From positions 9,033 through 73,032 of the forward strand of contig CAYNRK010000003.1 in NCBI GenBank assembly GCA_964399675.1: a DNA stretch of 64,000 nucleotides. The letters run 5' to 3'. Every line of letters starts with the position of its first letter. Position 1 is the first letter of the stretch. The notes beneath the pieces were generated by a model. The model did no database searches. It saw only the letters and a list, made by a program, of their open reading frames with translations, and had not been told where the DNA came from. Origin of the DNA: an uncultured Gammaproteobacteria bacterium (GTDB lineage: Bacteria; Patescibacteriota; Patescibacteriia; UBA9934; GWF2-40-263). The position numbers were made by a program, and so were the translations under genes. Shown here in pieces: positions 20,413 to 43,815 of the stretch.

Positions 20413-20486
20413 ATGAAGTTTTTTGTTTCAATTAGAAAACCCGGTTGCCGAAGCTACCGGGAGTGAAGAGGTTGCAGCGGCCGAAG

Positions 20487-25743: not shown

Positions 25744-25772
25744 TAAACAAAAAAATCGCTAAAATTAGCCAA

Positions 25773-25801
25773 AAATCACTTGACTTTCAAGTGATTTTTT
25801 G
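25773..25801 (+). terminator. rho-independent terminator (aatcacttg-actt-tcaagtgatt-TTTTT)
   Basis: 9-10 bp stem followed by a U-tract, downstream of serS. Confidence 0.6.
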
Positions 25802-26136: not shown

Positions 26137-28125
26137 ATGAACACGCTCAGAATTCGGTTTTTCTTTTACTTCCTCTGTGCTCAGGCCTTCTTGGCGTTTG
26201 TGATGATCATGATGGCCTGCACAGAGTCGGTGGATGTCTCCTCAAGAGAGCATTCATTCGAAGGTGGTGGTGTCTACAGGACAACGATCCATCTTCCCGG
26301 TTCGCCAGCAGTGGAGCTTCAGTGCGTGCAAGGTGTTGGCGGTTCCTACTCGCACACTTCTCGATCGACCTACTACGATATCGATCTTGACACCTCGAAC
26401 ATCCGTGATGAGAGCGTGTACGCGCCGGCTGATGGGATCGCTTTCGTTCATATGCACAACTCGCATATGAACTTTGGAAAGCATGTGAACATTGACCTGG
26501 GCGATGGCACGTACGTGGTGATTGCGCACATGTCAAAGATCGTGGTCTCTGACAACGCTGAAGTGGCAACCGGACAGCTACTAGGGCTTGAAGGATGCAC
26601 TGGATCCTGCACAGGCGATCACATTCATGTCGGTCTTCACAGAGGGAATGCGGCTCAACCTGCGCAGTATGGTGAGTCTGTTCCTGTTCGATACCATGTA
26701 GCGGATAACACAGAGCCGCGCGGACACAAGCCGCTTGATGTTGAAGAGACGGTCTGTGGTCTCCGAGCATTCGGAGACAACCAAAACGGGCAGTTCTATA
26801 CCTCTGCACTTGACGTAACGCTTTTCCATCCAAACGGCACGCTTGTGAAGACGTCAAACAACGCACGTGTGTATCTCATTGACAACGGTCAATTGCGACA
26901 CATTGCAAACGAACGAACGTTTCACTCATACGGCTACAGTTTCATGGACGTTGCCATCATTTCAGATGAAGAACGCTCATGTTACCCCGAGGGTCCCGTG
27001 CTTGACCTTGTGGGTATGGTGGATGCTGTTACGGATGACAACGATCAGATTTGGCTACTGGTTGGTCCAAGGCAAAGGAGCGACCGGTATCGTATCCGCG
27101 TCAGAAACGAAGCGTTTGAGCAGGTGCTTGAGTCCTGGGGAGTCAACGTTGGTCTTCAAGGACCTCGACAGGTTCGCTCAAATGCACGCGAGCTTGCTCA
27201 GTGGCCTGTGAGATCCGGAACAGCTCGATTCCGAGATGGAAGTCTTGTCAGAGAGCAAGATCGTTCGGATGTCTATCTGATCTCAGACTCTGTTGCGCTT
27301 CCGATTGCGAACTGGCAGACGTATCTGCGTCTTGGGTTTTACGATCGACAAGTGCTCATGGTTGGAAACGGTGAGCTAGCACAGGTTCAGCGAGCAGCTG
27401 GCAATTGCCTGGTGGGCAGCAACTGCTTGGACGGATACAACATCAGTGTGTGCGGAAACGACTTGAGGCTGGATCTCAGGCATGAGTCAGACACCAGCGG
27501 CGATCTACAAGTTGCTGGATTTCGTGAAAACGAAAACGAGGAACACAATGGCGAAAAAGAAGAGCAAGAAGGTGATGGGGAGAGTGAGGAGGAGGTGGTT
27601 GCAGGTACCACTCTGGACGAAAGCGAGGATGAAGAACGTGAGATTGAAGCAGGTGTAACTCCTCTTTGCAACGGCCAGGACGCATGCCTACACGACAACG
27701 ACGGTGATGACAAGGCCGAGTTCCTTCTGATGCGAAATCATCAGTGGTTGAATCCGGACTTGCACGATGAGTTCGCGGTTGTTTACGGCAACGGAGGTTG
27801 CTTTAACAATCGTTTCGAGCCAGGTGACGTTTTCTATCCAAGAGACGGTTACTACTGGATCGATTTCACTGTCTTTGACAGACCGTGCAGCAGTGAGCTC
27901 ACACTCATCTCTGTGGTCGGCACTGACGGCGAAGATCCACGTCCTTCAATGGACAACTGGTACTGGTGGCAGAATGCACCGTTCTGTTCGCAAGGCTCCA
28001 TGCTTTGCAATCTCATGAACAACGGTGTGCCATGGGAAGAGTGGTTGGTTTCGGTTGCCTGGCATCCGGATCAAGGCCTCTTGCCAAACGGCAACGGCTT
28101 CACACGAAATACTCAGCTTCACTGA
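26137..28125 (+). CDS. secreted M23-family (LytM-like) peptidoglycan metalloendopeptidase, high-GC gene with acidic E/D-rich region
   Basis: Signal peptide. HxxxD (SHTSRSTYYDIDLD) and HxH (GDHIHVGLH) zinc-site motifs typical of M23. RBS AGGAGAGAGG. GC about 55%, against about 38% in flanking genes. Confidence 0.7.
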   Translation: MNTLRIRFFFYFLCAQAFLAFVMIMMACTESVDVSSREHSFEGGGVYRTTIHLPGSPAVELQCVQGVGGSYSHTSRSTYYDIDLDTSNIRDESVYAPADGIAFVHMHNSHMNFGKHVNIDLGDGTYVVIAHMSKIVVSDNAEVATGQLLGLEGCTGSCTGDHIHVGLHRGNAAQPAQYGESVPVRYHVADNTEPRGHKPLDVEETVCGLRAFGDNQNGQFYTSALDVTLFHPNGTLVKTSNNARVYLIDNGQLRHIANERTFHSYGYSFMDVAIISDEERSCYPEGPVLDLVGMVDAVTDDNDQIWLLVGPRQRSDRYRIRVRNEAFEQVLESWGVNVGLQGPRQVRSNARELAQWPVRSGTARFRDGSLVREQDRSDVYLISDSVALPIANWQTYLRLGFYDRQVLMVGNGELAQVQRAAGNCLVGSNCLDGYNISVCGNDLRLDLRHESDTSGDLQVAGFRENENEEHNGEKEEQEGDGESEEEVVAGTTLDESEDEEREIEAGVTPLCNGQDACLHDNDGDDKAEFLLMRNHQWLNPDLHDEFAVVYGNGGCFNNRFEPGDVFYPRDGYYWIDFTVFDRPCSSELTLISVVGTDGEDPRPSMDNWYWWQNAPFCSQGSMLCNLMNNGVPWEEWLVSVAWHPDQGLLPNGNGFTRNTQLH

Positions 28126-28229: not shown

Positions 28230-31163
28230 ATGCAAAACCTTTTTTTCCGTTTGATTGAAACGCTTTTGTTGTTATCTAAGCGTTTGAAATCGTTTACAAA
28301 CCGCAAGAGGAAACAAGCGGGAATTTTTGGTTTAATTACCTTTGTCGGTGTGTTTGTTGCAGCAAGGCCGGTGTTTGCTCAAACATCTGAGCCAGGTGTA
28401 TTGGCTTGGTTTTTTGAATTAATTGGAAATCTAGCCATTGCAATTGCAGGATTCCTTTCTCAAATGGTTGTCGCAATTATAAACGCGATCATACCGGTCA
28501 TGCTTTACAATGATTTCTCAAACAACCCAATTGTAAGTGCTGGTTGGGCAATTATGAGAGACACTGTGAACATGTTCTTTGTTATCATTCTTATCATTGT
28601 TGCTTTTGGAACTATTTTTGGACACTCTCGTTTTCAGTGGCAGCAGCAGATTCCAAAGCTCATGATCTTTGCGATTGTTATCAATTTTTCAAAAACACTT
28701 TGTGGACTCATGATTGATTTTGGACAGATCATCATGCTTACGTTTGCAAATGCACTTCAGGAAATTGCTGCCGGTAACTTTATACAACTTCTCGGACTAG
28801 GTGATATTTATTCAGTTAGTACTGCAACAGACAAAATGCAGAACCAAGGTGGTACAAGTGCATTTGACTGGATGGCAGCAGGCCTTGGTGCTGCATTTAT
28901 TATGTTGATAGTTTTTGTAACCATGGTGCTTTTGCTTGTGATTTTGTTGTATCGCATTGTGATGCTTTGGATTATGATCGTGCTTGCACCTCTTGCCTGG
29001 TTTGTTGGTGGGGCTGGTGGGGCAAATGGGATTGTGCGGTCCAATGCATATGCACAATGGTGGGAACGATTTAAGTGCTTGGTTGCAATTGGTCCTGTTC
29101 TTACGTTTTTTTTATGGCTAACTCTTGCTGTTGCCGGTGCCGGTAATGTTGCGCGCTCGACCGGTTTTAATGTTGGGTCTCCAACAGGGATTAAAAATCC
29201 ATCCGCCATTCTCTCTACAATTTTTGAGCTTGACAGATTTATTAGTTTTATAATTGGAATTGCCATGATCTACGCAGGTTTTGAAGCAGCTCAGCAGTTG
29301 TGTTCTTCAATGTCCGGATCGTTTTTGGGTAAGCAGCTTTCAGGCAAGTCACCGTTTAAAGCACCTGTTGTTAGGGGTGCTGCTGGAGCTGGTGCAAAAG
29401 TTGGTGCATGGGGTGCAAGACAGGCGTATAGACCAATTGGCGCTGCTGGCCGCGGTGTTCGACGTTCATTAGGTGCTGCTCTTGATCAAAAACAAAGCAC
29501 AGGGGGTCGTTGGAAATATACAAAACCATTTACAAGAAAAGGACGTGCTGATATTGCAAGAGCAGCAGTTGGTAAAGCACCAAAACCACTTCAGAAATTA
29601 ATTGCACCTGTTGTGCAAGGATATGCAACTGGTCAAGAACAAAAAACACGCGATGATGTTGCAAAAGCCGCAGAAAAATACAAAGACAGAGACAAATCAG
29701 TTAAGGTTGATCAATTGGAACGATTTGCTGAAGGTGGTGCCAGTACACTTACAGGCGGAAAGAATGAAGCAATGGGTCTTATGATGGAGGCTATGGGTGA
29801 TAAGGAAATGATGAAGCAGCTTAGGGCTTCGGGCGCTGGTGAAAAACTTTGGGAAGAAAACGGAGAGGATCTTAAGCGTGTATATGCCAGCGATTCAGCG
29901 TCAATGGATAAGATTGAAAAGTTTGAAAAAGAAAATGCTGATATAACCGGAGCAACTCATCTTATTAATGACGAACAAGATGTTCGCGATCTTTCAGATC
30001 AGGCTGTGGCAGATGGTGATGTAAGAGCAGCTATGAGAAGTAAGCAGATGAGGTATAAGGGTCAAGTGATGAATATGGAAGATGCTGCAGAGCAAGGTGC
30101 TTTCGGTGCTCGCAAACAAGCGATTGTACAAGAAGCAATGGCTGGTGGTAGTGGTAAAGGAGCTTTGTATGATCGCATGAGCAACAGAGAATTATCAAGA
30201 GTATCAACAGAGGCCCTTCTTTCAAGTGCTTCAGTTGCGACTCTTGCACGTGCGATGAAAGTAGCTACCCAACAAGGCAATGCCGGTCGTGCAGATGCGC
30301 TAAGCGCCGGTATTGCATCGGGTTCTACAGGCGCAGATTCAAATATGCAAATGGCAGACGGAAGAGATGCATTAGAGAGTGCTCAGTGGTCGTTCGAAGA
30401 TGTTCTTGCTGATGAAAGTGTTCCAGATACAGATCGAGCAAGAGTAGAGGACGTAGCCGGTCGTAATGCCGAACGATTGGAGGCTGCACAACAGACAAGT
30501 GCACCAATACTTGGCGAACATCCTGATCAATATGCTGATTCTGTTGTTTTGGCAGAAGAGGAAAGAACAACGCAATTGGTGGGTTATGATGCAATTCAGC
30601 CAATGAGCGCAGCTGCAATCGGGCAGAAATATGTTAAACGAGCCGGATTTGCTGATCAAAGTCAAGAAGAGGTTGGAAGAGCATTGCATGCGGCAGGAAA
30701 CACTGCAGATGCTGTTGATCAAGAAGCAGAAGGACAAAAGAAAGAGATTGCAGAAGCATCACCTGATATGAATCCTATTCTAACTGAATTTCAAAGATTA
30801 ACTGAGGAAATTGGAGGTCTTAGAGAATCGATCGAGACGCAGGTAGAGTCAGAGATGGCGCCAGAGACACAACAACTGGATGCGATTCAAAACCAACTTG
30901 CTTCTAGTGCTTTGGAGGGAGACCAAAGAGAAAAATATAAGATACAAGCCAAGGAAATAGCCAAGGCAATTAATCAGCGACGCTCTGAAGTTACTGATGG
31001 GACACAAATTATGAATTTAATGCGTCAGAAAGCTGCTTTGCAGATTCCTCCTGAACACAAAGATCTTACAGCCAGGATTGTGAAAACAAGTCAGGATAGG
31101 AGGGTTGCCCAAGCTACTGGTGCTGCACTTGAAGATGTTGGAAGAAAAAAGCGTGAAACATGA
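28230..31163 (+). CDS. VirB6/TrbL-like polytopic membrane protein with long hydrophilic C-terminal extension (T4SS-like component)
   Basis: Start at the ATG at 28230, preceded by TATAAT at 28214. The longer ORF-track start at 27966 runs back into the 3' end of the GC-rich M23 gene. At least 6 TM helices (..IVLAPLAWFVGGAGG..), then about 550 aa of charged coiled-coil-like sequence. Confidence 0.5.
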   Translation: MQNLFFRLIETLLLLSKRLKSFTNRKRKQAGIFGLITFVGVFVAARPVFAQTSEPGVLAWFFELIGNLAIAIAGFLSQMVVAIINAIIPVMLYNDFSNNPIVSAGWAIMRDTVNMFFVIILIIVAFGTIFGHSRFQWQQQIPKLMIFAIVINFSKTLCGLMIDFGQIIMLTFANALQEIAAGNFIQLLGLGDIYSVSTATDKMQNQGGTSAFDWMAAGLGAAFIMLIVFVTMVLLLVILLYRIVMLWIMIVLAPLAWFVGGAGGANGIVRSNAYAQWWERFKCLVAIGPVLTFFLWLTLAVAGAGNVARSTGFNVGSPTGIKNPSAILSTIFELDRFISFIIGIAMIYAGFEAAQQLCSSMSGSFLGKQLSGKSPFKAPVVRGAAGAGAKVGAWGARQAYRPIGAAGRGVRRSLGAALDQKQSTGGRWKYTKPFTRKGRADIARAAVGKAPKPLQKLIAPVVQGYATGQEQKTRDDVAKAAEKYKDRDKSVKVDQLERFAEGGASTLTGGKNEAMGLMMEAMGDKEMMKQLRASGAGEKLWEENGEDLKRVYASDSASMDKIEKFEKENADITGATHLINDEQDVRDLSDQAVADGDVRAAMRSKQMRYKGQVMNMEDAAEQGAFGARKQAIVQEAMAGGSGKGALYDRMSNRELSRVSTEALLSSASVATLARAMKVATQQGNAGRADALSAGIASGSTGADSNMQMADGRDALESAQWSFEDVLADESVPDTDRARVEDVAGRNAERLEAAQQTSAPILGEHPDQYADSVVLAEEERTTQLVGYDAIQPMSAAAIGQKYVKRAGFADQSQEEVGRALHAAGNTADAVDQEAEGQKKEIAEASPDMNPILTEFQRLTEEIGGLRESIETQVESEMAPETQQLDAIQNQLASSALEGDQREKYKIQAKEIAKAINQRRSEVTDGTQIMNLMRQKAALQIPPEHKDLTARIVKTSQDRRVAQATGAALEDVGRKKRET

Positions 31164-31196
31164 TTGAAAGAAAGTTATGCAACTTAAAAAATCAAC

Positions 31197-32834
31197 ATGA
31201 CTGACACTTCGTCACAACAGACCCAACAAGTTAGCGAGGAGGTTCGTGAGTATTTGTGGTCTGATGAAGTGTATAAAAGATATGCAGAGACTGCTTTGAA
31301 TCATGGGTTAACAAATGGTTTGCGTGGTGTTGGGTCTATTATGTTGCAGCTTGTTGAAGGAAAGTTGCAAATAAATGATTTGCCTGGAAAGTTGGTTGAG
31401 GTTTTAAAGGTTGATGCAGAAGCTGCAAAGCGAATAAGTCTTGAGCTTGCGCAAACAGTTCTCGTTCAAATCGCTGATAGCATTTCAGGGCTTGATGAAG
31501 TTGTTTTGGTCTGGGGGGGAGAATTGCCAGAGACTAAAGAAAAGCCGGAAAAATTTGTAGATAATTATTTGAAAGGTTTAATTGGTCTTTCAGATAAACA
31601 CATGCATGATCGGTTTGCGTCGTTTTTGGTGAAGCTTATTCGCAAGGAGCGCTCACATGATGAAACAGTCCAGATGATGATGCGGCCAATTAAAGTTGCG
31701 GGATTGGGCCTTGGACAAGTTGAGGCGGAAAAGTTGTTGGATCAGTTTGGGGAGAAAGTTAAGGGGGTTGAGTTTGAGGGGGAAGAGGTCCGAGAGGTAA
31801 AAGAGGTCCGAGAGGGAGAAGATGTTTTGACAGAGCCTGTTGTTGAGGCGTTTGGTGTAGAAGATGCGCGGGAAATTGAGGAAATAAAAAAGTCAGGACC
31901 GGATCTTTCACCTCCAGATAATTTTGAATCAGTGGAAGAAGTTGTTGATACTATCTGTGATCATGAAGTTTTTGATCTTTCAGATAATGTATTAAATAGT
32001 CGGTGTAAAAAAATTATTGATTCCAGAGTACGAGGAGTTAGAGATGCATTTGAAACAAGGAAAAAGTTAGAGCGGCCTACTGATAAAGGCGGGCTTGGGC
32101 TTTCCGGGAGAAAATTAGCAGATATGATGGAGTTTTTAGAAAAGAGTTTGCAAGTGTATCAGAAGAGTCATACAAAACATGTTGAAACAAAGAGAGCTGA
32201 GCATGGTGCAACTCAACAAGAACAAAAACAGCAAAAAGAACAACTCAAGAAAAAAGAAGAGCAAGTTTTGTCAAAGCGATATGCGTCCTTAACCGGCAAG
32301 GCTCCGACAGAGTCAGTAAAGCCGGCAGCCCCACCTCTTGGACGAGCAAGTGTTTCAGTTTCAGCTCAACAACAAATTAATCAGCAAGAAGAAAAAATCA
32401 ACACACAGCGAGTTAGGGGTGCGATTGAAAGTGCAAAAGCTAAGCAGCCTGCAAAGCCTCAGCCAAAAAAGGTTAAGCCAAACATGTCTGATGTTAAATT
32501 TGAGCGAAGGCTTTCAAGTCCCATTGATGAACTTCGTACCATGGATCTAAAAGATTTTAGACGTTTAGCTTCAGATGCTGCGCAAGCAGCTACAAAGATT
32601 AAGGACAAAGTACGTTTAATGGAAGATCAGGGTTATGAAAAAAAGATTGAAGCAATCAAAGCTTGGCGTGAGTCACCTGTGAATCAATTATATGTTAAGT
32701 ATTCGCGTGAGGCACTTCTTAATGGCAAAGCACTTGCAGATGTTTTAAAAAGCCATCAAGACGTTGGCAAGGACGCACTTACTGACAAAGAACTTAAAGC
32801 AATAATGAAGATTAATACGGACTTGCGTTTCTAG
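31197..32834 (+). CDS. hypothetical hydrophilic K/E-rich protein in the T4SS-like locus
   Basis: 545-aa ORF with no TM segments and a coiled-coil-like middle. Tightly packed between the VirB6-like and VirB3-like genes. Confidence 0.5.
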   Translation: MTDTSSQQTQQVSEEVREYLWSDEVYKRYAETALNHGLTNGLRGVGSIMLQLVEGKLQINDLPGKLVEVLKVDAEAAKRISLELAQTVLVQIADSISGLDEVVLVWGGELPETKEKPEKFVDNYLKGLIGLSDKHMHDRFASFLVKLIRKERSHDETVQMMMRPIKVAGLGLGQVEAEKLLDQFGEKVKGVEFEGEEVREVKEVREGEDVLTEPVVEAFGVEDAREIEEIKKSGPDLSPPDNFESVEEVVDTICDHEVFDLSDNVLNSRCKKIIDSRVRGVRDAFETRKKLERPTDKGGLGLSGRKLADMMEFLEKSLQVYQKSHTKHVETKRAEHGATQQEQKQQKEQLKKKEEQVLSKRYASLTGKAPTESVKPAAPPLGRASVSVSAQQQINQQEEKINTQRVRGAIESAKAKQPAKPQPKKVKPNMSDVKFERRLSSPIDELRTMDLKDFRRLASDAAQAATKIKDKVRLMEDQGYEKKIEAIKAWRESPVNQLYVKYSREALLNGKALADVLKSHQDVGKDALTDKELKAIMKINTDLRF

Positions 32835-32838
32835 ATGT

Positions 32839-33273
32839 ATGCCAGAGCAGTTCACAATCCCACAATTTATTGAGTCAGAAGATAAAATTTTTGGGCCTGT
32901 AACAGCCAGGCAATTTATTATTGTCATGGTTGTTGGGCTTGTAGAGTTTATTTTGTTTAAGGCGATTTCTTTTGTCATATTCTTACTGATAGGTATTCCG
33001 TTTTTTGCTCTTGGAATGATTTTCGCATTTGCCAAAGTCAATGGTCAGCCTTTTCACTACTTTATGTTAAACTTAATTCAGACATTTAAAAAACCATCAC
33101 TGCGAGTTTGGGATAAGACCCTGACGGATTCTGAAATTAAATTTATTATAAAAAAGGTTGAGGAGATTCCACCTGAAGCGCCAAAACGAAAAACAAGATT
33201 AGGTAAATCAAGACTTCAAGAACTTACCCTTGTTGTGAATACAGGCGGTGTATATAAACCAGACGAGAACTAG
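32839..33273 (+). CDS. small two-TM membrane protein (VirB3/PrgI-like) immediately preceding VirB4
   Basis: 144 aa with a hydrophobic hairpin (FIIVMVVGLVEFILF / FVIFLLIGIPFFALGMIFAF). Positioned as in Gram-positive-type T4SS operons. Confidence 0.4.
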   Translation: MPEQFTIPQFIESEDKIFGPVTARQFIIVMVVGLVEFILFKAISFVIFLLIGIPFFALGMIFAFAKVNGQPFHYFMLNLIQTFKKPSLRVWDKTLTDSEIKFIIKKVEEIPPEAPKRKTRLGKSRLQELTLVVNTGGVYKPDEN

Positions 33274-33274
33274 T

Positions 33275-33955
33275 ATGCAATCCAAAAAACTTGCAAAACC
33301 AAAACCAGGACCATCAACGCAGCGCTTTCTTGACATTGCTGAGATTCGAGACGACTTGGTTGTACTAAAAGACGGAACAGTTCGCGGTTTGCTTTTGGTT
33401 TCCAGTATTAACTTCGCACTCAAGTCTGTTGATGAACAAGAGGCAGTTATTCAGGCTTACATGATGTTTCTTAATGGTCTGGAATATCCGATTCAGATTG
33501 TGATTCAATCGCGTCGCATGAACATTGATCCATATATGCAACGGCTTGCAGAACAGCAACGGGCAACTGGGAATGATTTACTTCGTGCGCAAATTTCAGA
33601 TTACAGAAATTTTGTTCAGGAACTTGTTGAACTTGGACAGATAATGCAAAAGCGATTTTATATGGTTGTGCCTTATGATCCTGTTTCTGACAAGAAAAAG
33701 AATTTCTGGACGAGATTTTCCTCGGTTCTTTCACCAGCAGCTTCTTCAAAACTAAACAAAAAACAATTTGAAGAGCGGGCTGAACAACTGTCTCGTCGAA
33801 TTAATGTTGTTATTGGTCAACTCAATGGCATGGGGCTTGCGTCTGTTCGTATGGACACGCAAAGTCTTATTGAGCTTTATTATAATGCTTATAATCCAGA
33901 TCTTTTTGAAAGTGAGAAGCTGGCAGATCTGTCACAAATTCGTCACGAAGAATAA
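33275..33955 (+). CDS. VirB4/TrbE-family N-terminal domain, separated from the ATPase part by a single in-frame TAA
   Basis: ...DIAEIRDDLVVLKDGTVRGLLLVSSINFALKSVDEQEAVIQAYMMFLNGLEYPIQIVIQSRRMNI... matches the CagE/TrbE/VirB4 N-terminal pattern. It is in the same reading frame as 33959..36043. Confidence 0.55.
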   Translation: MQSKKLAKPKPGPSTQRFLDIAEIRDDLVVLKDGTVRGLLLVSSINFALKSVDEQEAVIQAYMMFLNGLEYPIQIVIQSRRMNIDPYMQRLAEQQRATGNDLLRAQISDYRNFVQELVELGQIMQKRFYMVVPYDPVSDKKKNFWTRFSSVLSPAASSKLNKKQFEERAEQLSRRINVVIGQLNGMGLASVRMDTQSLIELYYNAYNPDLFESEKLADLSQIRHEE

Positions 33956-33958
33956 TCT

Positions 33959-36043
33959 ATGCCACTTGATATAGGACAAGTAAAAAAAGCCATGCCAGCA
34001 CCGGCTCCAAAGAAACCAGTTAAATTAAAGCCGGAAGAGGTAAAGGTTAAGCAAGAAAAGCTCGTTTTAGAAGAGGAGCGAATTTATCGTCGGGGTGTTG
34101 TAACTGTTAAAGATGTTATTGCTCCTGCGGCATTTCAAGTCAATCCAAGGCACCTTTTACTTTCAGGTGTTTATGTGCAAACGCTTTTCATTATTACTTA
34201 CCCGCGTCACATTGGTATTGGTTGGGCAACGCCGCTTATTAATTTGAATAAAACTTTTGATGTTGCAATGTTTTTTTATCCACTCAAAGCAAACATTGTA
34301 CTCAAACAGCTTCAGAAAAAAGTTGGTGTGTTTGAGGCAAAGGTTCTGGGTGATGCTGAAAAAGGTGCGCCGCGTGATCCAATTGCTGAGACTGCATTAC
34401 GTGACATTGAGGCGCTTCGCGATGCACTTACGCAAGGGATTGAACATTTTTTCCAATTTGCTTTTTACATTACAATTTACGCAAAGAGTCAGGACGAACT
34501 TGATAAATATGCACAAGAAGTTGAAGCGCTGTTTGGGAGCAAGTTGATTTATACAAAGACTGGTTTTTATCAAACCGAACAAGGATTTAATTCCACAATC
34601 CCGCTTGGTAATGATGAGATCATGATTACCTATAACATGAACACATCGCCAATAGCAGCATCCTTCCCGTTTGTGAGTTCTGATGTTTCTTCTGATGATG
34701 GAATTTTGTATGGGATTAATAGACACAACAACTCGCTTATCTTGTTTGATCGGTTTAGTTTGCAAAACGCTAACTCGGTTGTGTTTGCTACTTCTGGTGC
34801 TGGAAAGTCCTATGCTATTAAACTTGAGATTTTGCGAAGCTTGATGATGGGAACAGATGTGATTGTGATTGATCCTGAAATGGAATATAAAGATTTGTCT
34901 GACGCAACCGGAGGAACATATATTAATGTGTCACTTGCTTCGGATGCAAAAGTTAATCCGTTTGATTTGCCGCGCGCGGTTGGAGAGGGTACAAAAGTTG
35001 AAGATATAATTAGAAGCGCTGTTATTACTCTTAAGGGTCTTTTGCGTATTATGATCGGAAAGCCGCAAGGGGCTTCCGGCACTCTTGGTTTCACACCAGA
35101 GGAAGATTCCATGCTTGACCAAGCGCTTATTGAGACATTTGCGAAAAAAGACATCACACCTGATATTACGGATTTATCCAATGTAGAAGCTCCGATTTTT
35201 TCTGATTTTCAAGATGTGCTTGAAGGTATGGAAGGGGCTGATGATTTAGTAGCACGGTTGCGCAAATATACTGAAGGTACATTTTCCGGACTTCTTAATT
35301 CTCCAACAACTGTTGAGATGGATAATCAGCTTGTAGTCTTTTCTGTGCGAGATTTAGAAGATGAGCTTAGGCCTGTTGGAATTTATTCCATTGTTAATTA
35401 TATTTGGAATGTTGTGCGTTCTGTGCGAAAGAAGCGAATCATGGTTATTGATGAGGCTTGGTGGCTGATGCAACAGGAAGATTCTGCTAAGTTTATTTTT
35501 GCACTTGTAAAGCGTTGTAGAAAATACTTCATGGGAGTCACAACAATCACGCAAGATGTTAATGACTTTTTGCGCTCGCCTTATGGTCAGGCGATTGTAA
35601 CAAACTCCTCGCTCCAAATTTTGCTTAAGCAATCTACGTCCGCGATTGATCTCGTTCAAAAGACGTTTAATTTAACGGATGGAGAAAAGTATTTACTTTT
35701 GGAATCAGGTATTGGAGAAGGAATTTTCTTTGCCGGACAAAAGCACGCGGCAATTAAAATTATTGCTTCTTATACTGAAGATCAAATTGTTACAACAAAT
35801 CCGGCACAGCTTTTGGAGATTGAAGAGGCAAAGAAAGAGTTTGAGGCGCAGCTTGAAGAGAAGGGTGGAGGAGAGGTAGCCCCAGGCTTTAGCCTGGGCG
35901 AAGATGTCGAAGGGGAGGAAAAGATTACAGTTAATGAAGCTCAAAAAGAAGCGCAAGCACAAGACGCTGCTTCAGCACTTTTGTCACAAGAAGATGCCGG
36001 CAAAGCCGAAGCAGATAAAATTCGCGATTCACTTACCATATGA
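33959..36043 (+). CDS. VirB4/TraC-like conjugative-transfer ATPase, C-terminal ATPase portion
   Basis: Walker A VFATSGAGKSYAIK; Walker B RIMVIDEAWWLM (DEAW); 694 aa. Together with the preceding ORF, about 930 aa. Confidence 0.75.
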   Translation: MPLDIGQVKKAMPAPAPKKPVKLKPEEVKVKQEKLVLEEERIYRRGVVTVKDVIAPAAFQVNPRHLLLSGVYVQTLFIITYPRHIGIGWATPLINLNKTFDVAMFFYPLKANIVLKQLQKKVGVFEAKVLGDAEKGAPRDPIAETALRDIEALRDALTQGIEHFFQFAFYITIYAKSQDELDKYAQEVEALFGSKLIYTKTGFYQTEQGFNSTIPLGNDEIMITYNMNTSPIAASFPFVSSDVSSDDGILYGINRHNNSLILFDRFSLQNANSVVFATSGAGKSYAIKLEILRSLMMGTDVIVIDPEMEYKDLSDATGGTYINVSLASDAKVNPFDLPRAVGEGTKVEDIIRSAVITLKGLLRIMIGKPQGASGTLGFTPEEDSMLDQALIETFAKKDITPDITDLSNVEAPIFSDFQDVLEGMEGADDLVARLRKYTEGTFSGLLNSPTTVEMDNQLVVFSVRDLEDELRPVGIYSIVNYIWNVVRSVRKKRIMVIDEAWWLMQQEDSAKFIFALVKRCRKYFMGVTTITQDVNDFLRSPYGQAIVTNSSLQILLKQSTSAIDLVQKTFNLTDGEKYLLLESGIGEGIFFAGQKHAAIKIIASYTEDQIVTTNPAQLLEIEEAKKEFEAQLEEKGGGEVAPGFSLGEDVEGEEKITVNEAQKEAQAQDAASALLSQEDAGKAEADKIRDSLTI

Positions 36044-36633
36044 TTACACCTGAAAAACGACGAACTATTATAGTATTGATCATTGTTTTGCTCTTTTTAA
36101 TTTTCTTTTTTACTGGTTTTTTTCTTTTAACAAGATCAACAGACTCTCCTGCGTCGTTGCGAGGAGCCGAAGGCGACGAAGCAATCTCCGTAACTGAAGA
36201 ACAAATGCTTGAATCAGAAAAAAATAATCAAGAGACCCGATTAGAGCAAGAACAAGCAGAACGCAATGAAACAAGTAATGTTACTTCACTATCCAAAACT
36301 TTTGTTGAGCGTTATGGAAGTTATTCAACAGAAGCGAATTTCCAAAATCTTAGAGATGTTTTACCACTCATGACTTCTTCGTTTGCTGCAAGAACCGAGC
36401 AATTTATTTCAACTGCTAAAACACCTTCTGAATATTATGGAGTGAGCACTGATGTGATTACAGTTAATGTTGAGGTGATGGAAGAGGATGAATCCGCCAT
36501 AGTTCTTATAACAACACAAAGAGAAGAGGCAAAAGGATTGCCCGGTAATGTATCAATAAAATATCAGGATGTTCGTGTGGAATATTTATTTGAATCTGGT
36601 TCATGGAAAGTCAACTCAGCCGATTGGTTGTAG
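36040..36633 (+). CDS. bitopic membrane protein (N-terminal TM + ~150-aa external domain); possible VirB8-like component
   Basis: TM segment IIVLIIVLLFLIFFFTGFFLL followed by a soluble domain. 4-nt overlap with the VirB4 stop. Confidence 0.4.
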   Translation: MITPEKRRTIIVLIIVLLFLIFFFTGFFLLTRSTDSPASLRGAEGDEAISVTEEQMLESEKNNQETRLEQEQAERNETSNVTSLSKTFVERYGSYSTEANFQNLRDVLPLMTSSFAARTEQFISTAKTPSEYYGVSTDVITVNVEVMEEDESAIVLITTQREEAKGLPGNVSIKYQDVRVEYLFESGSWKVNSADWL

Positions 36634-37292
36634 AAAGCGTTTTCCCGCGTTTTTGCGTTGGGTGCCGGAGGGAAGGGTCGCTGTGGTGTGAGATTTGCGA
36701 TGAACTTCAGGTTCAATTTTTTTTATCTCCATCATGTCCGTTTTGTTCACGCAAAGGTTCTAATAGAACTTGTCAGGATTGTAAGTCCTACACATATCTC
36801 GATGGACTAACAGCAATGGGGCCGTACGCGAATACAAAAATTAAAGAAGCAATTAAATTGTGGAAGTATTATCAGGACAGATTTATTGAACCAATAATTT
36901 TTAAGTGGCTGCAACAGGAGCTGTCAAGAATGAATCTTCCAATCATGCCGTTTTATGCAACGCACGTTCCACTGCATTTTAAAAAAGAACGAGAGCGTGG
37001 CTTTGATCAGGCAAGGTGTGTTGCTGAGTGGACTGAAAAGCTGTTTGGGATTTTTGTTGAAGATTTGCTTGTAAGGCAGGTTCGTACAGTCTCACAAGCC
37101 AGACAGGAAACAAGAAAGATAGGGGAGTTGGATCACATTTTTGAAATCCATCCGGATGTAGTTGAGGTTCCAGAAAATATCTTGTTATGTGATGATGTGT
37201 TTACATCCGGTGCTACAATGGACGCAGCTGCCAGGCGTCTCAAGGAGTCTGGGGCTAAAATGGTTTGGGGGTTTGTGGTTGCAAGGAAATAA
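36603..37292 (+). CDS. comFC: competence protein ComFC (zinc-finger + phosphoribosyltransferase domain)
   Basis: N-terminal Cys clusters (CVGCRREGSLWCEICDELQ...CPFCSRKGSNRTCQDCKSY). PRTase motif LLCDDVFTSGATMDAA. Confidence 0.75.
   Translation: MESQLSRLVVESVFPRFCVGCRREGSLWCEICDELQVQFFLSPSCPFCSRKGSNRTCQDCKSYTYLDGLTAMGPYANTKIKEAIKLWKYYQDRFIEPIIFKWLQQELSRMNLPIMPFYATHVPLHFKKERERGFDQARCVAEWTEKLFGIFVEDLLVRQVRTVSQARQETRKIGELDHIFEIHPDVVEVPENILLCDDVFTSGATMDAAARRLKESGAKMVWGFVVARK
37263..37286 (+). repeat. left copy of a 25-bp direct repeat (gtttgggggtttgtggttgcaagg), forming the 3' end of comFC
   Basis: About 21/24 nt identical to 38163..38187. Encodes VWGFVVARK*. Confidence 0.7.
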
Positions 37293-37314: not shown

Positions 37315-38154
37315 ATGTCTAAAAAAGGCAACTCAATTATACTTTTTCATGAAAAACAAGTTCGTCGTTATTGGGATGAGGAAGATGAACTTTGGTATTT
37401 TTCGATTGTGGATGTTCTTGAAGTTTTAACAGGAAATACAAGACCGAGAAAATATTGGAATGATTTAAAAAAGAAGCTGTTGCTTGAGGGCAGTCAGTTG
37501 TCCGAAAAAATCGGACAACTGAAAATGCAGTCATCTGATGGAAAATTTTATAAAACTGATGTTTTGGATACGGAAAATTTATTGAGACTTATTCAATCGG
37601 TGCCGTCTCCAAAAGCAGAGCCATTGAAACTTTGGCTTGCCCAAGTTGGTTACGAGCGAATTGAAGAAACCGAAGATCCTGAACTTGCTTTTGACCGAGC
37701 AATGCAAACCTATTTGCAAAAAGGCTATTCCAAAGACTGGATAAATCAAAGACTTAAAACAATCGAAGTTCGCAAAGAACTCACAGATGAGTGGAAAGAA
37801 CGAGGAGTTAAAGAAGGTTTAGAATTTGCTATTTTGACGGATGAAATTACCAAAGCTTGGTCTGGAAAGTCTGTAAAACAGTACAAAAAGTTTAAAGATC
37901 TTAAAAAGCAAAACTTGAGAGACAACATGACCAATCTTGAACTTATTTTGAACATGCTTGCCGAAGCGACAACGACCGAAATTTCAAAAGAAAAAGAGCC
38001 AAAGACTTTATTGGAAAGCAAGGGAATTGCAAGAGAGGGAGGAGAGACAGCAGGAAAAGCAAGAAAAGATATTGAAAAGAAAATAGGGAAAAATGTTATT
38101 TCTTCCAAAAGCGTAAAAGAGTTAAAAAATTCAAAACAAGATCTACTTCAGTAA
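37315..38154 (+). CDS. Bro-N domain protein (phage antirepressor / DinD-like)
   Basis: N-terminal ...ILFHEKQVRRYWDEEDELWYFSIVDVLEVLTG... matches the Bro-N pattern. The ATG at 37315 follows the comFC stop. Confidence 0.6.
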   Translation: MSKKGNSIILFHEKQVRRYWDEEDELWYFSIVDVLEVLTGNTRPRKYWNDLKKKLLLEGSQLSEKIGQLKMQSSDGKFYKTDVLDTENLLRLIQSVPSPKAEPLKLWLAQVGYERIEETEDPELAFDRAMQTYLQKGYSKDWINQRLKTIEVRKELTDEWKERGVKEGLEFAILTDEITKAWSGKSVKQYKKFKDLKKQNLRDNMTNLELILNMLAEATTTEISKEKEPKTLLESKGIAREGGETAGKARKDIEKKIGKNVISSKSVKELKNSKQDLLQ

Positions 38155-38234: not shown

Positions 38235-39155
38235 TTGATTCATAGTATTTATTTTCATATGCCTGAACCACGATCAATGTTACCTGCAATCGAACCAGAG
38301 CCACGATCGCAAACAGACCTGGAAATAGGGCGAGATTTAGCTTCTTATAAACTTCTTTTTCAAGAAGCAGGGTTAGATCCCGATACTATTGATACTCGGC
38401 TGTTGGAACGCTTTGCATTACTTGATGAGAAAACCCCGGTTCTTGATGATGAGCGTTTGATGATGCAATACGCAGATAAGGTTTTTGATTATTGCGACAG
38501 AGTTGACTCAGAAAATGCTATGGATGTGTATGGTCGTCGTGTTGTTAGGCTTGGAACCCTGCTTGCAGATATTGGAAAAACAGGGCCATTAGATGCAACA
38601 CCGGAACAGCAAACGCTTGTTACTGAAATGTATGCTATTGATGAACCGTTTGACGGAAATAAATCAGTTACAGAATATTTAGAAACTTTTTTTCCTAATG
38701 AATATCAAGCAAGGATGGAAACATTTAAAACCCTTAAACTAGATCCAGACATGACCATGCGCGATTTTTGGAACATGCATGCTAAATGGAGTTTTGATCT
38801 TGTTTCAATGGGTAAGGCGCCTGATGAGATTGCTTATACAGCAGCAATTCATCATTTGCTTGAAGGGGTTGATCCGGTTGGTATCGATAAAAATGGAGAA
38901 TTTATTGGTTTACAAAAACCACGGCCGATTGATCAAAGAGAAATTTTTGTGATCTTGCTTGATAAGTATGATGCACGCAGACGCAGAGGTGGGGTTGATC
39001 ACGCAACCGCAATCGCGTATCTATATGATCGTGTGACAAATAACAATGTACTCGACAGTCTTCCTCAGCGAGTACGAGCACAGTTTATGAGTTGTATCGA
39101 CGATCTGGCTGAAGCACTTAAGTCAACAGAAGGGCAAGTTGAAGTGCCTCAATAA
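38235..39155 (+). CDS. hypothetical protein
   Basis: 306-aa ORF with host-like composition; no recognisable motif. Confidence 0.45.
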   Translation: MIHSIYFHMPEPRSMLPAIEPEPRSQTDLEIGRDLASYKLLFQEAGLDPDTIDTRLLERFALLDEKTPVLDDERLMMQYADKVFDYCDRVDSENAMDVYGRRVVRLGTLLADIGKTGPLDATPEQQTLVTEMYAIDEPFDGNKSVTEYLETFFPNEYQARMETFKTLKLDPDMTMRDFWNMHAKWSFDLVSMGKAPDEIAYTAAIHHLLEGVDPVGIDKNGEFIGLQKPRPIDQREIFVILLDKYDARRRRGGVDHATAIAYLYDRVTNNNVLDSLPQRVRAQFMSCIDDLAEALKSTEGQVEVPQ

Positions 39156-39164
39156 ATCATAAAA

Positions 39165-39195
39165 ACACCAGACTAATAAGTCTGGTGTTTTTATG
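39165..39195 (+). terminator. rho-independent terminator (caccagac-taataa-gtctggtg-TTTTTAT)
   Basis: Perfect 8-bp stem plus a U-tract, 10 nt after the stop. Confidence 0.75.
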
Positions 39196-40523: not shown

Positions 40524-42527
40524 ATGGGGCTTCATTTGAATTCATCAGTTGCTGAACTTCCGGGAATTGGCGGAAAGGCAGAAAAAGACCTTAAGAATCT
40601 CGGGATTATTAGTATTAGAGATCTTTTGTGGTATGTGCCATTTCGATACGATGATTACTCTTTAAGCAAACCTATTAATGAATTGAGAAGCGGGGATCAG
40701 GTTACGCTGACCGGAGAAGTAACTTCCATTCATAGTCGACTAGCAAAAAACAAGAAAGTAACAATTACAGAAGCTGAATTTGAAACTGGTGAGGGATCAA
40801 TTAAAGTTATTTGGTTTAATCAACCTTATTTGGAAAAGCAGTTGAAACCAGGTCGTAGAATTTCATTGGCCGGGCGTATTGATCATAGATTTGGTATGTC
40901 ACTTATGAATCCTATTTATGAACCAGAAGGTAAACAAATTCATACCGGACGGATCGTTCCGGTTTATGGTTTGTCCGGGTCGCTTACAATGCGACGTTTG
41001 AGAGCTGCCATACACACCGCACTTAACGCAACTGATGAGATGGACGATTGGATTCCAAAAGATATTCTTGATAAGGAATCGTTTCCAGTTTTGTCAGATG
41101 CTATTGCAAACGTTCACTTTCCAGAAAGCCAAGAGGTTCTAAATCGATCAATTGAGCGCATAAAGTTTGGTGAGCTTTTTTTGCATCAACTCATGTTTGC
41201 AGAAATTAGAGAGGATAGAAAAAAACGTTCAACTCATTCGATTGCCACTGATGAATCTTACTTGAAACAATTTGTTGCTCAACTGCCGTTTGAGTTAACA
41301 AAAGCTCAGCGTGTTTCTGCTTGGGAGATTGTTCAGGATATTTCTTCTGTGATTCCGATGAACCGTTTGTTGGAAGGAGATGTTGGATCTGGAAAAACTG
41401 TTGTCGCAGCTATTGCAGCAGCACAGGTTTTAAAACACGGTCACTCAGTTGCGTATTTAGCCCCAACAGAAATATTAGCTGAGCAACAATACGAAGTTTT
41501 ATCTGACACATTAAAAGATTTTTCCGTTGGTCTTCGGACTCGAACACAAAAGGAAGATGTTAAAGGCTCGTCTGTATGCATTGTTGGAACACACGCGCTT
41601 TTGCAAGAGGGGATTAAGATTCCAAATCTAGCTTTGGTCATTGTTGATGAACAGCACAGGTTTGGAGTGAAGCAGCGGCACGCTCTTCTTGAAAGAGATC
41701 CCGCCCCCCATCTTCTTTCAATGACCGCAACGCCAATTCCGAGATCATTGGCGCTTTCACTTTATGGAGATCTTGATCTTTCAATTTTAAACGAACTTCC
41801 AAAAGGCAGAAAACCTGTTGCAACAGCAATTGTAGAAAAGTCTCACCAACCAGGAATGTGGTCCCACATAAAATCACAAATAAGTTACGGCCGTCAGTTA
41901 TTTGTGATTTGTCCTCTTATTGATCCTTCAGATAAACTTGGTTCGAAATCAGTAACTGATGCAGAAAAAGAGCTAAAAAGCGGATCTTTAAAAGAGTTTT
42001 CAATTGAAGTTTTACATGGCAAACTTAAAACAGAAGAAAAGCAGGAGAGGATGAAAAGTTTTCAAAAAGGAAAGACTGATGTGTTGATTTCAACAACAGT
42101 GGTTGAGGTTGGGGTTGATATTCCAAATGCTTCCACAATGGTCATTCTTGGCGCAGAACGATTTGGACTTGCCCAACTACATCAATTAAGAGGACGTGTT
42201 GGTCGGTCAGATGTTCAATCTTATTGTTATCTTTTACCTGACACATTATCTTCAATTTCAGAAAAACGTTTGAAAGCAATGGTTGAAACAACAGACGGAT
42301 TTAAACTTGCAGAAGTTGATTTGGAACTTCGTGGACCTGGGAATATTTTTGGAAATTCACAATCAGGTTTTCCGGATTTTCGTTTAGCTACAGTTGCAGA
42401 TGTGGAACTTATGAAAAAAGCGCATGATTGGTCTGATCTAATACTCAAAGATGATCCTGAACTTGAAAACAATCCTTTGCTTAGACAAAAAGTAAAAACA
42501 GACTTTGCGTCTGTTCACTTGGAATAA
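40524..42527 (+). CDS. recG: ATP-dependent DNA helicase RecG
   Basis: Wedge/OB N-terminus. Helicase motifs DVGSGKTVVAAIA, VIVDEQHRFGV, HQLRGRVGRSD. 667 aa. Confidence 0.92.
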   Translation: MGLHLNSSVAELPGIGGKAEKDLKNLGIISIRDLLWYVPFRYDDYSLSKPINELRSGDQVTLTGEVTSIHSRLAKNKKVTITEAEFETGEGSIKVIWFNQPYLEKQLKPGRRISLAGRIDHRFGMSLMNPIYEPEGKQIHTGRIVPVYGLSGSLTMRRLRAAIHTALNATDEMDDWIPKDILDKESFPVLSDAIANVHFPESQEVLNRSIERIKFGELFLHQLMFAEIREDRKKRSTHSIATDESYLKQFVAQLPFELTKAQRVSAWEIVQDISSVIPMNRLLEGDVGSGKTVVAAIAAAQVLKHGHSVAYLAPTEILAEQQYEVLSDTLKDFSVGLRTRTQKEDVKGSSVCIVGTHALLQEGIKIPNLALVIVDEQHRFGVKQRHALLERDPAPHLLSMTATPIPRSLALSLYGDLDLSILNELPKGRKPVATAIVEKSHQPGMWSHIKSQISYGRQLFVICPLIDPSDKLGSKSVTDAEKELKSGSLKEFSIEVLHGKLKTEEKQERMKSFQKGKTDVLISTTVVEVGVDIPNASTMVILGAERFGLAQLHQLRGRVGRSDVQSYCYLLPDTLSSISEKRLKAMVETTDGFKLAEVDLELRGPGNIFGNSQSGFPDFRLATVADVELMKKAHDWSDLILKDDPELENNPLLRQKVKTDFASVHLE

Positions 42528-42528
42528 T

Positions 42529-43815
42529 TTATTTTAAGTCTTTTACGTGTTTGATTTCTTTTGGGCCATGGATTGAGTTGATGCCAAGCCGTTCGGCTTC
42601 TTTTTTTCGCTTGTCCAAAAATGGAACTGGACGAACTTCACCGCCTAAACCAACTTCGCCAAGAAACATTGTTGCTTGATCAAAAGATGTGTTCAAGAGT
42701 GCACTGGTGATTGCCGCACAGACAGCAAGGTCTGCAGCAGGTTCCTTGAGCCGCATGCCACCTATCACATTGATATATACATCCTGATCAGAGAGTTTAA
42801 GACCAGCACGTTTTGAAAGAATTGCAATCATCATTTGTAATCGATTGTGATCAAAGCCCGAAGCCTTTCTCACAGGTGTTCCATATGCGGATTTATCAAC
42901 CAGTGCCTGCACTTCAACCAGAAAGACACGAGAACCTTCAACAGTTGCGGTGACAACAGATCCTGGAACCTCAACTCTGTCTTTTAAAAATTGTGCAGAA
43001 GGATTCTCAACTGGCAGAAGTCCTGTTGAAGCCATTTCAAAAACTCCAATTTCATCTGTTGGGCCAAAACGATTTTTTGTTGAAACTAGAAAACGATAAC
43101 TGTGGGTTGCGTCTCCATCCAAAGAAAGCACAACATCAACCAAATGCTCAAGAGTTTTTGGGCCTGCAACAGAACCATCTTTTGTTACTTGACCAACAAG
43201 CAGAATCGTAATGCCTGAACGTTTACAGAATTCTAGTAATAGAGAAGTTGCGTAGCGCACAAGAGCTGGTGTTCCAGGGGCGCTATCCATTGAAAGGGAA
43301 GTCAAAGTCTGAACAGAATCAATTACAACAAAATCGGGTTTTTCTTTTTCCATTGTTGCAACAAGTATTTCAACCGGTTTTACTTCAAGGTAAAGAATTT
43401 TTTCATTTACTCCACCCAAACGTTCAAATCTGGATCTGAGCTGAGATCCGGATTCTTCACCAGATACATAAAGCGACTCTTTGCCTTGTTTTCCCAGGTC
43501 TCTAACAATTCCTGCTACAAGAGTTGATTTTCCAATACCAGGCTCACCAGAGAGCAATACAAGCGATCCTGGTACAAGTCCACCTCCAATAACCCTGTCA
43601 ATTTCTTGAACACCAACTGTAAATCGATTATTGGATTGATTAGAAATTTGTTTTTGAAGTTCGACCACTTCAGCTGCTGGAGTTTTTTGAATCACAGAAG
43701 AAGACGACCCTTTAATGGTCGCCTCCTCCTTTTTTAAAGTTCCCCAGCTGTCACATTCCAGACATTTGCCAGACCACTTGATTGATTGTGCATCACAAGT
43801 ACCGCAGATATACAT
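42529..43815 (-). CDS. radA: DNA repair protein RadA/Sms
   Basis: N-terminal Zn-finger CGTCDAQSIKWSGKCLEC; Walker A LLSGEPGIGKSTL; KNRFGPTDEIGVFEM motif; Lon-like C-terminal domain. Confidence 0.93.
   Translation of the reverse strand: MYICGTCDAQSIKWSGKCLECDSWGTLKKEEATIKGSSSSVIQKTPAAEVVELQKQISNQSNNRFTVGVQEIDRVIGGGLVPGSLVLLSGEPGIGKSTLVAGIVRDLGKQGKESLYVSGEESGSQLRSRFERLGGVNEKILYLEVKPVEILVATMEKEKPDFVVIDSVQTLTSLSMDSAPGTPALVRYATSLLLEFCKRSGITILLVGQVTKDGSVAGPKTLEHLVDVVLSLDGDATHSYRFLVSTKNRFGPTDEIGVFEMASTGLLPVENPSAQFLKDRVEVPGSVVTATVEGSRVFLVEVQALVDKSAYGTPVRKASGFDHNRLQMMIAILSKRAGLKLSDQDVYINVIGGMRLKEPAADLAVCAAITSALLNTSFDQATMFLGEVGLGGEVRPVPFLDKRKKEAERLGINSIHGPKEIKHVKDLK

Follow-up and report, generated by a model that had tools for sequence, protein, structure and literature searches.

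A putative, vertically inherited type IV secretion system in the chromosome of an uncultured ABY1 patescibacterium

The gene cluster described here lies at positions 28230-37292 of a 64,000-nucleotide stretch of DNA from an uncultured bacterium (contig CAYNRK010000003.1 of assembly GCA_964399675.1, positions 9,033 to 73,032 of the forward strand; the whole stretch is called the window below) and has the makings of a type IV secretion system (T4SS) of the kind found in Patescibacteria. An initial annotation, which considered the sequence without database searches, had proposed seven co-oriented, packed genes here, and all seven open reading frames (ORFs) are indeed present on the + strand, tightly packed, with intergenic distances of 33, 4, 1, 3, -4 and -31 base pairs (bp) in order along the cluster:

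28230-31163, + strand: VirB6-like polytopic membrane protein, 977 residues
31197-32834, + strand: all-helical protein of 545 residues, called u545 here, between the VirB6-like gene and PrgI
32839-33273, + strand: PrgI family (VirB3-like) protein, 144 residues, PF12666, two membrane helices
33275-33955, + strand: TrsD-like protein, the detached N-terminal domain of VirB4, 226 residues from its ATG
33959-36043, + strand: VirB4-family ATPase without the N-terminal domain, 694 residues
36040-36633, + strand: VirB8-like bitopic protein, 197 residues, NTF2-like domain
36603-37292, + strand: ComF-family protein, 229 residues, double zinc ribbon and phosphoribosyltransferase-like domain

This cluster was compared with the best 80 related loci in a species-level genome collection (GTDB), whose VirB4 proteins are 57-83% identical to that of the window. 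The loci were retrieved by a genome scan with a 10-sequence VirB4 alignment (a 25-sequence version was too diverse), synteny was assessed by tblastn and profile searches of the window proteins against the 80 loci, and counts that concern downstream context were restricted to the 52 loci with at least 3 kilobases (kb) of downstream sequence. The order VirB6-like, u545, PrgI, TrsD, VirB4 is nearly invariant in this set (78 loci have TrsD, and 73 have PrgI immediately before it), and the conserved order continues with the VirB8-like gene. The 80 loci belong to metagenome-assembled genomes named Uhrbacteria, Magasanikbacteria, Falkowbacteria, Buchananbacteria or Patescibacteria, the first four of which make up class ABY1 in GTDB, and some of the records bear evidently wrong titles such as "uncultured Gammaproteobacteria"; those homologs of the 197-residue protein, and of an M23 peptidase encoded just upstream of the cluster, that carry names are Uhrbacteria or "Patescibacteria group".

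The ATPase had been called VirB4 on account of its GAGKS and DEAW motifs, and motifs and family profiles agree on this. Both Walker motifs are intact (GAGKS at residue 280, DEAW at residue 498), Pfam P-loop_TraG matches at 3.4e-29, the NCBIfam model conju_CD1110 reaches 329 bits (cut-off 325; E = 4.9e-98) over profile positions 170-730 of 752, the C-terminal domain of VirB4 in the Protein Data Bank (PDB entry 4ag5) aligns at E = 2e-45, and the ATPase retrieved 9492 homologs from a representative library in a full HMMER search. The missing N-terminal domain is encoded by the 226-residue ORF directly upstream, which matches NCBIfam VirB4_plasma over positions 92-239 (E = 7.8e-9) and TrsD (E = 8.2e-5); on full-length NCBIfam VirB4 models this ORF covers the N-terminal region and the 694-residue ORF the remainder, in colinear fashion. 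About 50 of the top 150 VirB4 representatives (BLAST) carry the same domain fused at their N-terminus, that of P0145 being 36% identical to the 226-residue ORF over 222 residues (E = 5.7e-43).

The 226-residue ORF ends with a TAA at 33953-33955, which is followed by one codon and then by the ATG of VirB4, and two trivial explanations for such an in-frame stop were rejected. Recoding is ruled out, as the stop is TAA and not TGA and the window holds an uninterrupted ORF of 3226 residues under the standard code. Sequencing error is ruled out by identical DNA in independent assemblies (across 22 kb the window is identical to contigs, up to 264 kb long, that were assembled from independent environmental metagenomes) and by the situation in relatives, where the TrsD-like ORF is separate from VirB4 in 76 of 76 informative loci and lies in a different reading frame from it in 55, the proportion expected of independent genes. 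The split of VirB4 into TrsD and ATPase is therefore an old and stable arrangement rather than a local disruption, ancient and universal in this clade. The "split VirB4" of the initial annotation was thus correct as a description, although it was not recognised as the TrsD plus VirB4 arrangement that is already known. The small protein in the VirB3 position, also pointed out there, proves to match the PrgI family above its cut-off (PF12666, E = 7.7e-10, 39.6 bits against 27) and has two hydrophobic helices.

Two side observations on VirB4 representatives may be mentioned here. A PrgI/VirB3-like segment is fused in front of VirB4 in P0219, P0272 and P0240, the first two of which also have the TrsD-like domain and are thus VirB3-TrsD-VirB4 fusions; no VirB3-VirB4 fusions were reported in the Patescibacteria set of a survey published in 2025 (PMC12102498). 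P0144, a relative of 1263 residues, matches in two stretches with ~600 unrelated residues between them, the second stretch resuming directly past the Walker A position of the query, and this insertion at the P-loop looks like an intein or something similar.

Just past VirB4, the 197-residue protein has no sequence-family match, and its identity comes from structure prediction. The model, built from an alignment of 55 homologs (predicted local distance difference test score, pLDDT, 89), has a membrane helix at the N-terminus that leads into a long helix and an alpha+beta domain. This C-terminal domain is NTF2-like and resembles VirB8 structures that have been solved, with unrelated NTF2-like proteins coming next in the structure comparison, at 11.6 or below. 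The predicted structure settles this protein as VirB8-like at the level of fold and topology, and gives substance to what had been a bitopic candidate of suitable size.

The first gene of the cluster encodes a protein that, as judged by hydropathy, has ~7-8 hydrophobic helices between residues 30 and 345 and then a hydrophilic tail of ~610 residues. Its polytopic topology and the place of its gene, upstream of PrgI, are both in keeping with a VirB6. Of 49 complete orthologs, 48 have such a tail, 520-1500 residues long. A profile of 49 N-terminal regions found no match among PDB sequences, and profile searches found no DNA-binding domain in the tail. The 120 residues past the last hydrophobic helix contain 21 lysines and arginines versus 3 aspartates and glutamates, and such a basic stretch directly after the last membrane helix indicates, by the positive-inside rule, that the tail is probably cytoplasmic and not surface-exposed.

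Between VirB6 and PrgI sits u545, which has no match in Pfam, NCBIfam or PHROGs, is rich in lysine (10.8%) and glutamate (10.8%), and shows neither a signal peptide nor any hydrophobic or membrane segment, for which reason it too is probably a cytoplasmic protein. Surface exposure, which had been suggested for both u545 and the VirB6 tail, is therefore not what these features point to. The model of u545 is all-helical (pLDDT 77), with well-predicted domains whose mutual orientation is undefined (predicted template modelling score 0.29), and Foldseek found nothing with it. Profile-profile comparison reveals an internal duplication of a ~72-residue domain (residues ~118-188 and ~247-318; probability 99.3%, E = 1.5e-20), and both copies close with the motif R-x(3-5)-GGLGL-x(4)-A, set between two helices. 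The best-conserved part is the C-terminal domain (residues ~440-545), and the C-terminus itself is usually a hydrophobic residue, then a basic one (R, K or H), then an aromatic one. The family was found in 70 of the 80 loci, always between the VirB6-like gene and PrgI, and 8 of the 10 misses are loci truncated upstream. A kinship with nucleic-acid binders of the helix-hairpin-helix or SRP54 M-domain type was considered and is no more than conceivable, the SRP54 matches in a PDB profile search being weak (E = 0.05-0.14), and no DNA-binding domain was found in u545. The protein is thus a clade-specific T4SS component of no known fold.

The neighbours of the cluster are housekeeping genes, namely GroEL, a release factor, Sua5, KsgA, SerRS, three tRNAs, RecG, RadA, ClpB, TyrRS and PheS within the window, together with NusA, YidC, PheT and DnaE in the 10 kb beyond each window end. 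In GC content at third codon positions (GC3) the T4SS genes do not differ from the core genes that flank them, and the position of the cluster relative to core genes is fixed in ~70 species. Pfam searches of ORFs of at least 150 residues in the window, and of called genes in the 10 kb beyond each end (~84 kb in all; oriT was not searched for), matched no relaxase and no VirD4-type coupling protein, which extends a statement previously made for the window, and there is no integrase in the same ~84 kb. Compared with the closest species (locus L006), VirB4 is 82% identical and TrsD 76%, against 70% for SerRS, 63% for RecG and 61% for RadA, so that VirB4 would be under strong purifying selection; fast-evolving parts are the VirB6-like protein (45%) and u545 (38%).

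These findings bear directly on whether the cluster could be the remnant of an integrative and conjugative element (ICE), that is, a mating-pore module whose relaxase, coupling protein and integrase have been lost or lie elsewhere. Such an origin would be in keeping with the best NCBIfam VirB4 model, since conju_CD1110 stands for a Clostridioides CTn2-type ICE, with the order VirB6, VirB3, VirB4, VirB8, which is that of Gram-positive conjugation operons, and with the three tRNA genes and the phage-like Bro-N gene just downstream. However, besides the absence of all three mobility proteins from ~84 kb and a composition like that of the core genome, the cluster occupies the same place beside core genes in ~70 species and its VirB4 is more conserved than SerRS or RecG. 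As for the Bro-N/DinD-like gene (37315-38154; phrog_15286, E = 2e-114, the sole PHROGs match among the proteins of no known family), it forms a pair with an adjoining 306-residue ORF (38235-39155) between ComF and tRNA-Ser that is missing from all 80 related loci, and is therefore a separate, strain-specific phage-derived insertion outside the T4SS. Moreover, the VirB4 proteins of Patescibacteria are monophyletic, fall within the monoderm MPF_FATA class and have hardly moved from one class to another (PMC12102498). An ICE remnant is thus highly improbable, and the earlier view that this is not a conjugative plasmid module is upheld by the missing mobility genes, the housekeeping neighbours and the conserved order. 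Very probably, the locus is a vertically inherited chromosomal T4SS of class ABY1 (Uhrbacteria-like), derived from a single-membrane conjugation machinery of the MPF_FATA type.

Several genes around the cluster deserve attention alongside it, those for RecG and RadA as a conserved neighbourhood and not as parts of the machine:

26137-28125, + strand: M23 peptidoglycan endopeptidase, secreted or membrane-anchored, 662 residues, Pfam Peptidase_M23
40524-42527, + strand: RecG helicase with RecG_wedge, DEAD and Helicase_C domains
42529-43815, - strand: RadA (Sms) with zinc ribbon, KaiC/AAA_25 and Lon_C/ChlI domains
43819-44991, - strand: fusion of a VirB2-like pilin domain and an N-acetylmuramoyl-L-alanine amidase, 390 residues, PF18895 (5.3e-8) and Amidase_2 (5.4e-19)
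44967-46124, - strand: fusion of a VirB2-like pilin domain and a VanY/M15 D,D-carboxypeptidase, 385 residues, PF18895 (4.9e-7) and VanY (1.4e-9)
46121-46780, - strand: DsbA-like thioredoxin, membrane-anchored, Thioredoxin_4 (2.7e-20) and DSBA (8.6e-12)

The two pilin-domain genes at 43819-46124, which the initial annotation had overlooked, are the only ones with PF18895 in the window, and in both the pilin part consists of a signal-like segment and two membrane helices. Extensions of this sort are the rule in relatives, where 24 of 25 pilin-domain ORFs (in 19 loci, e.g., L006:18032-19657 and L016:18144-20150) continue for more than 120 residues past the pilin domain and ~10 of the extensions are matched by Pfam as VanY, SLT, Amidase_2, M15, M23 or 3D; the VirB2-like module in this clade thus usually anchors or carries a peptidoglycan enzyme. 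A DsbA-like gene lies downstream of VirB4 in 16 of 52 loci and is co-located with pilin genes in related loci. The group of beta-propeller, DsbA and pilin genes is adjoined by a gene for a 272-residue protein (48003-48821, - strand) without family match, which has a probably disordered, Q/K-rich N-terminal half and three C-terminal hydrophobic helices.

The M23 gene is confirmed (Pfam M23, 9.6e-14; HxxxD and HxH motifs intact; N-terminal hydrophobic segment), although the idea that it is the usual partner of the T4SS does not stand, as no more than 7 of the 80 related loci, the closest ones, have it upstream of the VirB6-like gene, which makes it a lineage-specific neighbour rather than a conserved partner. 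Its GC3 is 0.54, as opposed to 0.25-0.39 in surrounding genes. A recent transfer of this high-GC gene from another phylum was considered and is not supported, for its homologs are Patescibacteria-type proteins in 126 cases out of 126, and since its orthologs at the same position in the seven species (L005, L006, L008, L009, L010, L081, L082) have an elevated GC3 as well compared with their neighbours (e.g., 0.85 versus 0.50-0.60), recent transfer followed by amelioration fails to explain the value. Five genes of the window in all have a GC3 of 0.54-0.68 (2698-3579, 20445-24265 and 26137-28125), all others being at 0.25-0.39; apart from M23 they encode a membrane Ser/Thr kinase, two proteins of secreted or lipoprotein-like type and an unassigned protein of 293 residues.

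The abundance of wall enzymes raises the possibility that the machine is above all an envelope-assembly device, which would insert or display the VirB2-anchored hydrolases, along with M23, for remodelling or division of its owner's own wall. The extended pilins and the co-located DsbA are in line with this. So is the essentiality of the T4SS of Southlakia epibionticum ML1 (SEML1_0006-0019), established in co-culture by transposon sequencing (Wang et al., 2023, Cell, PMC10633639), which fits a housekeeping envelope role too; it was, however, measured in co-culture only, where dependence on the host and housekeeping are inseparable. Against such a device, the fast-evolving VirB6 tail and u545 (38-45% identity versus 82% for VirB4) look more like parts turned towards a variable partner. 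To our knowledge, no T4SS serves the growth of its owner's wall, and we consider this explanation unlikely.

The last gene of the cluster had been identified as ComFC, and it does belong to the ComF family, with a zinc ribbon and a phosphoribosyltransferase domain: TIGR00201 (comF) aligns end to end with E = 1.7e-18 (67 bits, under the 233-bit cut-off), DZR_2 is found in 33 of 35 orthologs and Pribosyltran in all 35, and both the cysteines and the DDxxTxGxT motif (the phosphoribosyl pyrophosphate loop) are invariant. In sister contigs ComF looks shortened at its N-terminus, but this comes from a difference in gene calling, the DNA being identical. The ComF gene overlaps the VirB8-like gene by 31 bp and is the first recognised gene past it in 27 of 52 loci, while ComF, RadA or RecG is found no more than 10 kb downstream of VirB4 in 50 of 52, in varying order and orientation.

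This neighbourhood would suit a DNA-import machine, in which the T4SS would take up environmental or host DNA and hand it to ComF, RadA and RecG, with u545 or the VirB6 tail as a DNA-handling adaptor in place of relaxase and coupling protein. Systems of the ComB and Ced types, which work without relaxase and coupling protein, speak for it, and in Helicobacter pylori ComEC and ComF act downstream of ComB. Patescibacteria are moreover unable to make nucleotides de novo (PMC11809585), and the co-localisation of comF, recG and radA with T4SS has been noted before, with the suggestion of functional coordination (PMC12102498). On the other side, comEC, a gene that competence requires, is dispensable in Southlakia (2025 review, PMC12857230), where competence depends on type IV pili (PMC10633639, PMC12857230), so the essentiality of its T4SS does not come from ComEC-dependent competence. 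The ComF gene, which had been taken as an argument for DNA uptake, is hence weak evidence, its neighbourhood being conserved while in Southlakia, the one relative to have been studied genetically, the T4SS is essential and comEC is not (PMC10633639, PMC12857230). In addition, the similarity of VirB4 to CedB is marginal (45 bits versus a cut-off of 700), no DNA-binding domain was found in u545 or the VirB6 tail, and proximity may be nothing but gene order inherited in small, slowly rearranging genomes. We know of no Patescibacteria T4SS for which DNA uptake has been shown, and find import of DNA quite unlikely. A bolder version, decidedly unlikely in our opinion, would make of the ABY1 T4SS, u545, ComF, RadA and RecG one single pathway for import of host or environmental DNA, a conjugation-derived channel run in reverse. 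There u545 and its doubled helix-GGLGL-helix domain would serve as a novel type of nucleic-acid adaptor instead of relaxase and coupling protein, and the wall of the host would be opened by VirB2-like proteins tipped with hydrolases.

How, then, does the locus compare with what has been described? The survey of 3,035 Patescibacteria genomes by Quinonero-Coronel et al. (2025, Microb Genom, PMC12102498) found TrsD, homologous to the N-terminus of VirB4, to be the commonest companion of VirB4, next to PrgI/VirB3, VirB6 and VirB2-like pilins of family PF18895; it found almost no relaxases, coupling proteins whose genes lie in other parts of the genome, VirB8 homologs that come "nearly all" from ABY1, and comF, recG and radA near the T4SS in ABY1 (PMC12102498). 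The present locus resembles this ABY1 arrangement (PMC12102498) in being chromosomal, in the MPF_FATA-closest VirB4 with TrsD beside it, in PrgI, a candidate VirB6 and a VirB8-like protein, in the PF18895 pilins nearby, in the lack of a relaxase or coupling protein nearby and in having comF, recG and radA in its neighbourhood. It is very probably a typical member of the Patescibacteria T4SS described in 2023-2025 and not a new system, an affiliation that the initial annotation had missed. What goes beyond the main text of the survey (PMC12102498) is the u545 family, the universality of the VirB4 split in the clade, the pilin-hydrolase fusions and the M23 neighbour in one subclade.

The Southlakia T4SS shares with it long-tailed VirB6-like proteins (extended VirB6 proteins with helical tails are annotated in PMC10633639 and discussed in PMC12857230), the order PrgI, TrsD-like (SEML1_0009), VirB4, an NTF2-like protein, PF18895 pilins, wall hydrolases beside the cluster (M15B/M23-like, lysozyme and CHAP in Southlakia) and the lack of a relaxase or coupling protein in the cluster. 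It differs in belonging to class Saccharimonadia, in having two VirB6-like genes and six separate small pilin genes, in lying near dnaA/dnaN rather than near comF/recG/radA, and in that no u545 homolog is apparent in its annotation tables. The conjugation systems of pCF10 (Prg/Pcf; PrgH, PrgI, PrgJ, PrgK, PrgL) and pGO1 (Trs; TrsD, TrsE) have the same order of VirB6-like, VirB3-like, VirB4 and VirB8-like components, the same single-membrane architecture without VirB7/9/10, and a separate TrsD homologous to the N-terminus of VirB4. Unlike the window locus, they are plasmid-borne, depend for DNA transfer on a relaxase and on PcfC or TrsK as coupling protein, have neither VirB2-like pilins nor a u545 component, and keep their wall hydrolase (SLT/CHAP) inside the operon. 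Resemblance to Helicobacter pylori ComB and archaeal Ced lies in a VirB4-type ATPase that goes without relaxase or coupling protein and in the link with a competence protein; ComB, however, spans the outer membrane with VirB7/9/10 homologs, none of which were found here, and the CedB score of VirB4 sets the locus apart from Ced.

The role that we favour is contact with a host, in which proteins would be exported or a surface structure assembled, rather than conjugation, because no relaxase or coupling protein lies nearby and the homologous system of Southlakia is essential on its host; for identity and mechanism taken together, we hold this to be probable, with moderate confidence. In such a machine, to judge by VirB/Prg systems, (i) a VirB4 hexamer, which PrgI/VirB3 would hold at the membrane along with the separate N-terminal domain TrsD, would power a channel that the VirB6-like and VirB8-like proteins would form through the single membrane, (ii) the same ATPase might insert or extrude the VirB2-like proteins encoded 8 kb downstream, which bear wall-hydrolase domains, (iii) M23 and the pilin-fused amidase and carboxypeptidase would open peptidoglycan, be it the cell's own or the host's, and (iv) the VirB6 tail and u545, on the cytoplasmic side, may form a docking platform of the kind supplied elsewhere by a coupling protein. 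The earlier proposal of a DNA-uptake or contact apparatus thus holds insofar as the locus is no conjugative plasmid or ICE, its DNA-uptake half being neither supported nor excluded.

Several points weigh against a host-contact machine as just outlined. We know of no ABY1 T4SS with an established function or substrate. A DNA-related role would agree no less well with comF, radA and recG staying so close to the cluster. The VirB6-like protein reaches 23.4-25.4 bits against TrbL/VirB6 (PF04610), the best value being half a bit under the 25.9-bit cut-off, and only 8 of 49 orthologs match this family (best E = 3e-7), so the assignment to VirB6 is apt in topology and borderline by profile. The probable cytoplasmic placement of the VirB6 tail and of u545 derives from the positive-inside rule and from absent hydrophobic segments, and an operon is no more than putative, promoter and terminator scans having given counts at chance level. 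Finally, VirD4 homologs are far from virB4 in most Patescibacteria, and a coupling protein could therefore be encoded elsewhere (PMC12102498).

Much of bacterial diversity is made up of Patescibacteria, which live in attachment to other microbes, and theirs is the only T4SS known to be essential for the growth of its owner. The locus in the window is a clean and complete example from uncultivated ABY1, which sharpens the parts list by (i) a predicted VirB8-fold subunit that sequence methods mostly miss, (ii) a VirB4 that is universally split, (iii) a conserved component of unknown fold between VirB6 and VirB3, and (iv) VirB2-like proteins with wall-degrading enzymes. Residual interest lies in u545, in the hydrolase-bearing VirB2-like proteins and in the link with ComF, RadA and RecG.

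A few minor observations concern the rest of the window. Two long perfect hairpins (25771-25799 and 39158-39195, with stems of 13 and 17 bp and T/A runs on both sides), placed after SerRS and after the 306-residue ORF, were the only strong ones to stand out in the scans; they bracket the stretch from M23 to Bro-N and may terminate transcription in both directions. Another Bro-N gene is located ~10 kb past the window end, one assembly has a small GIY-YIG ORF called between the tRNA genes, and L086:20640-21056 is grouped with this Bro-N/GIY-YIG observation. The uninterrupted 3226-residue ORF (10657-20337), the only match of which is a weak one to the carbohydrate-binding family CBM_4_9, may encode a giant surface protein, and partial homologs of it are found upstream of the T4SS in L016, L026 and L040.

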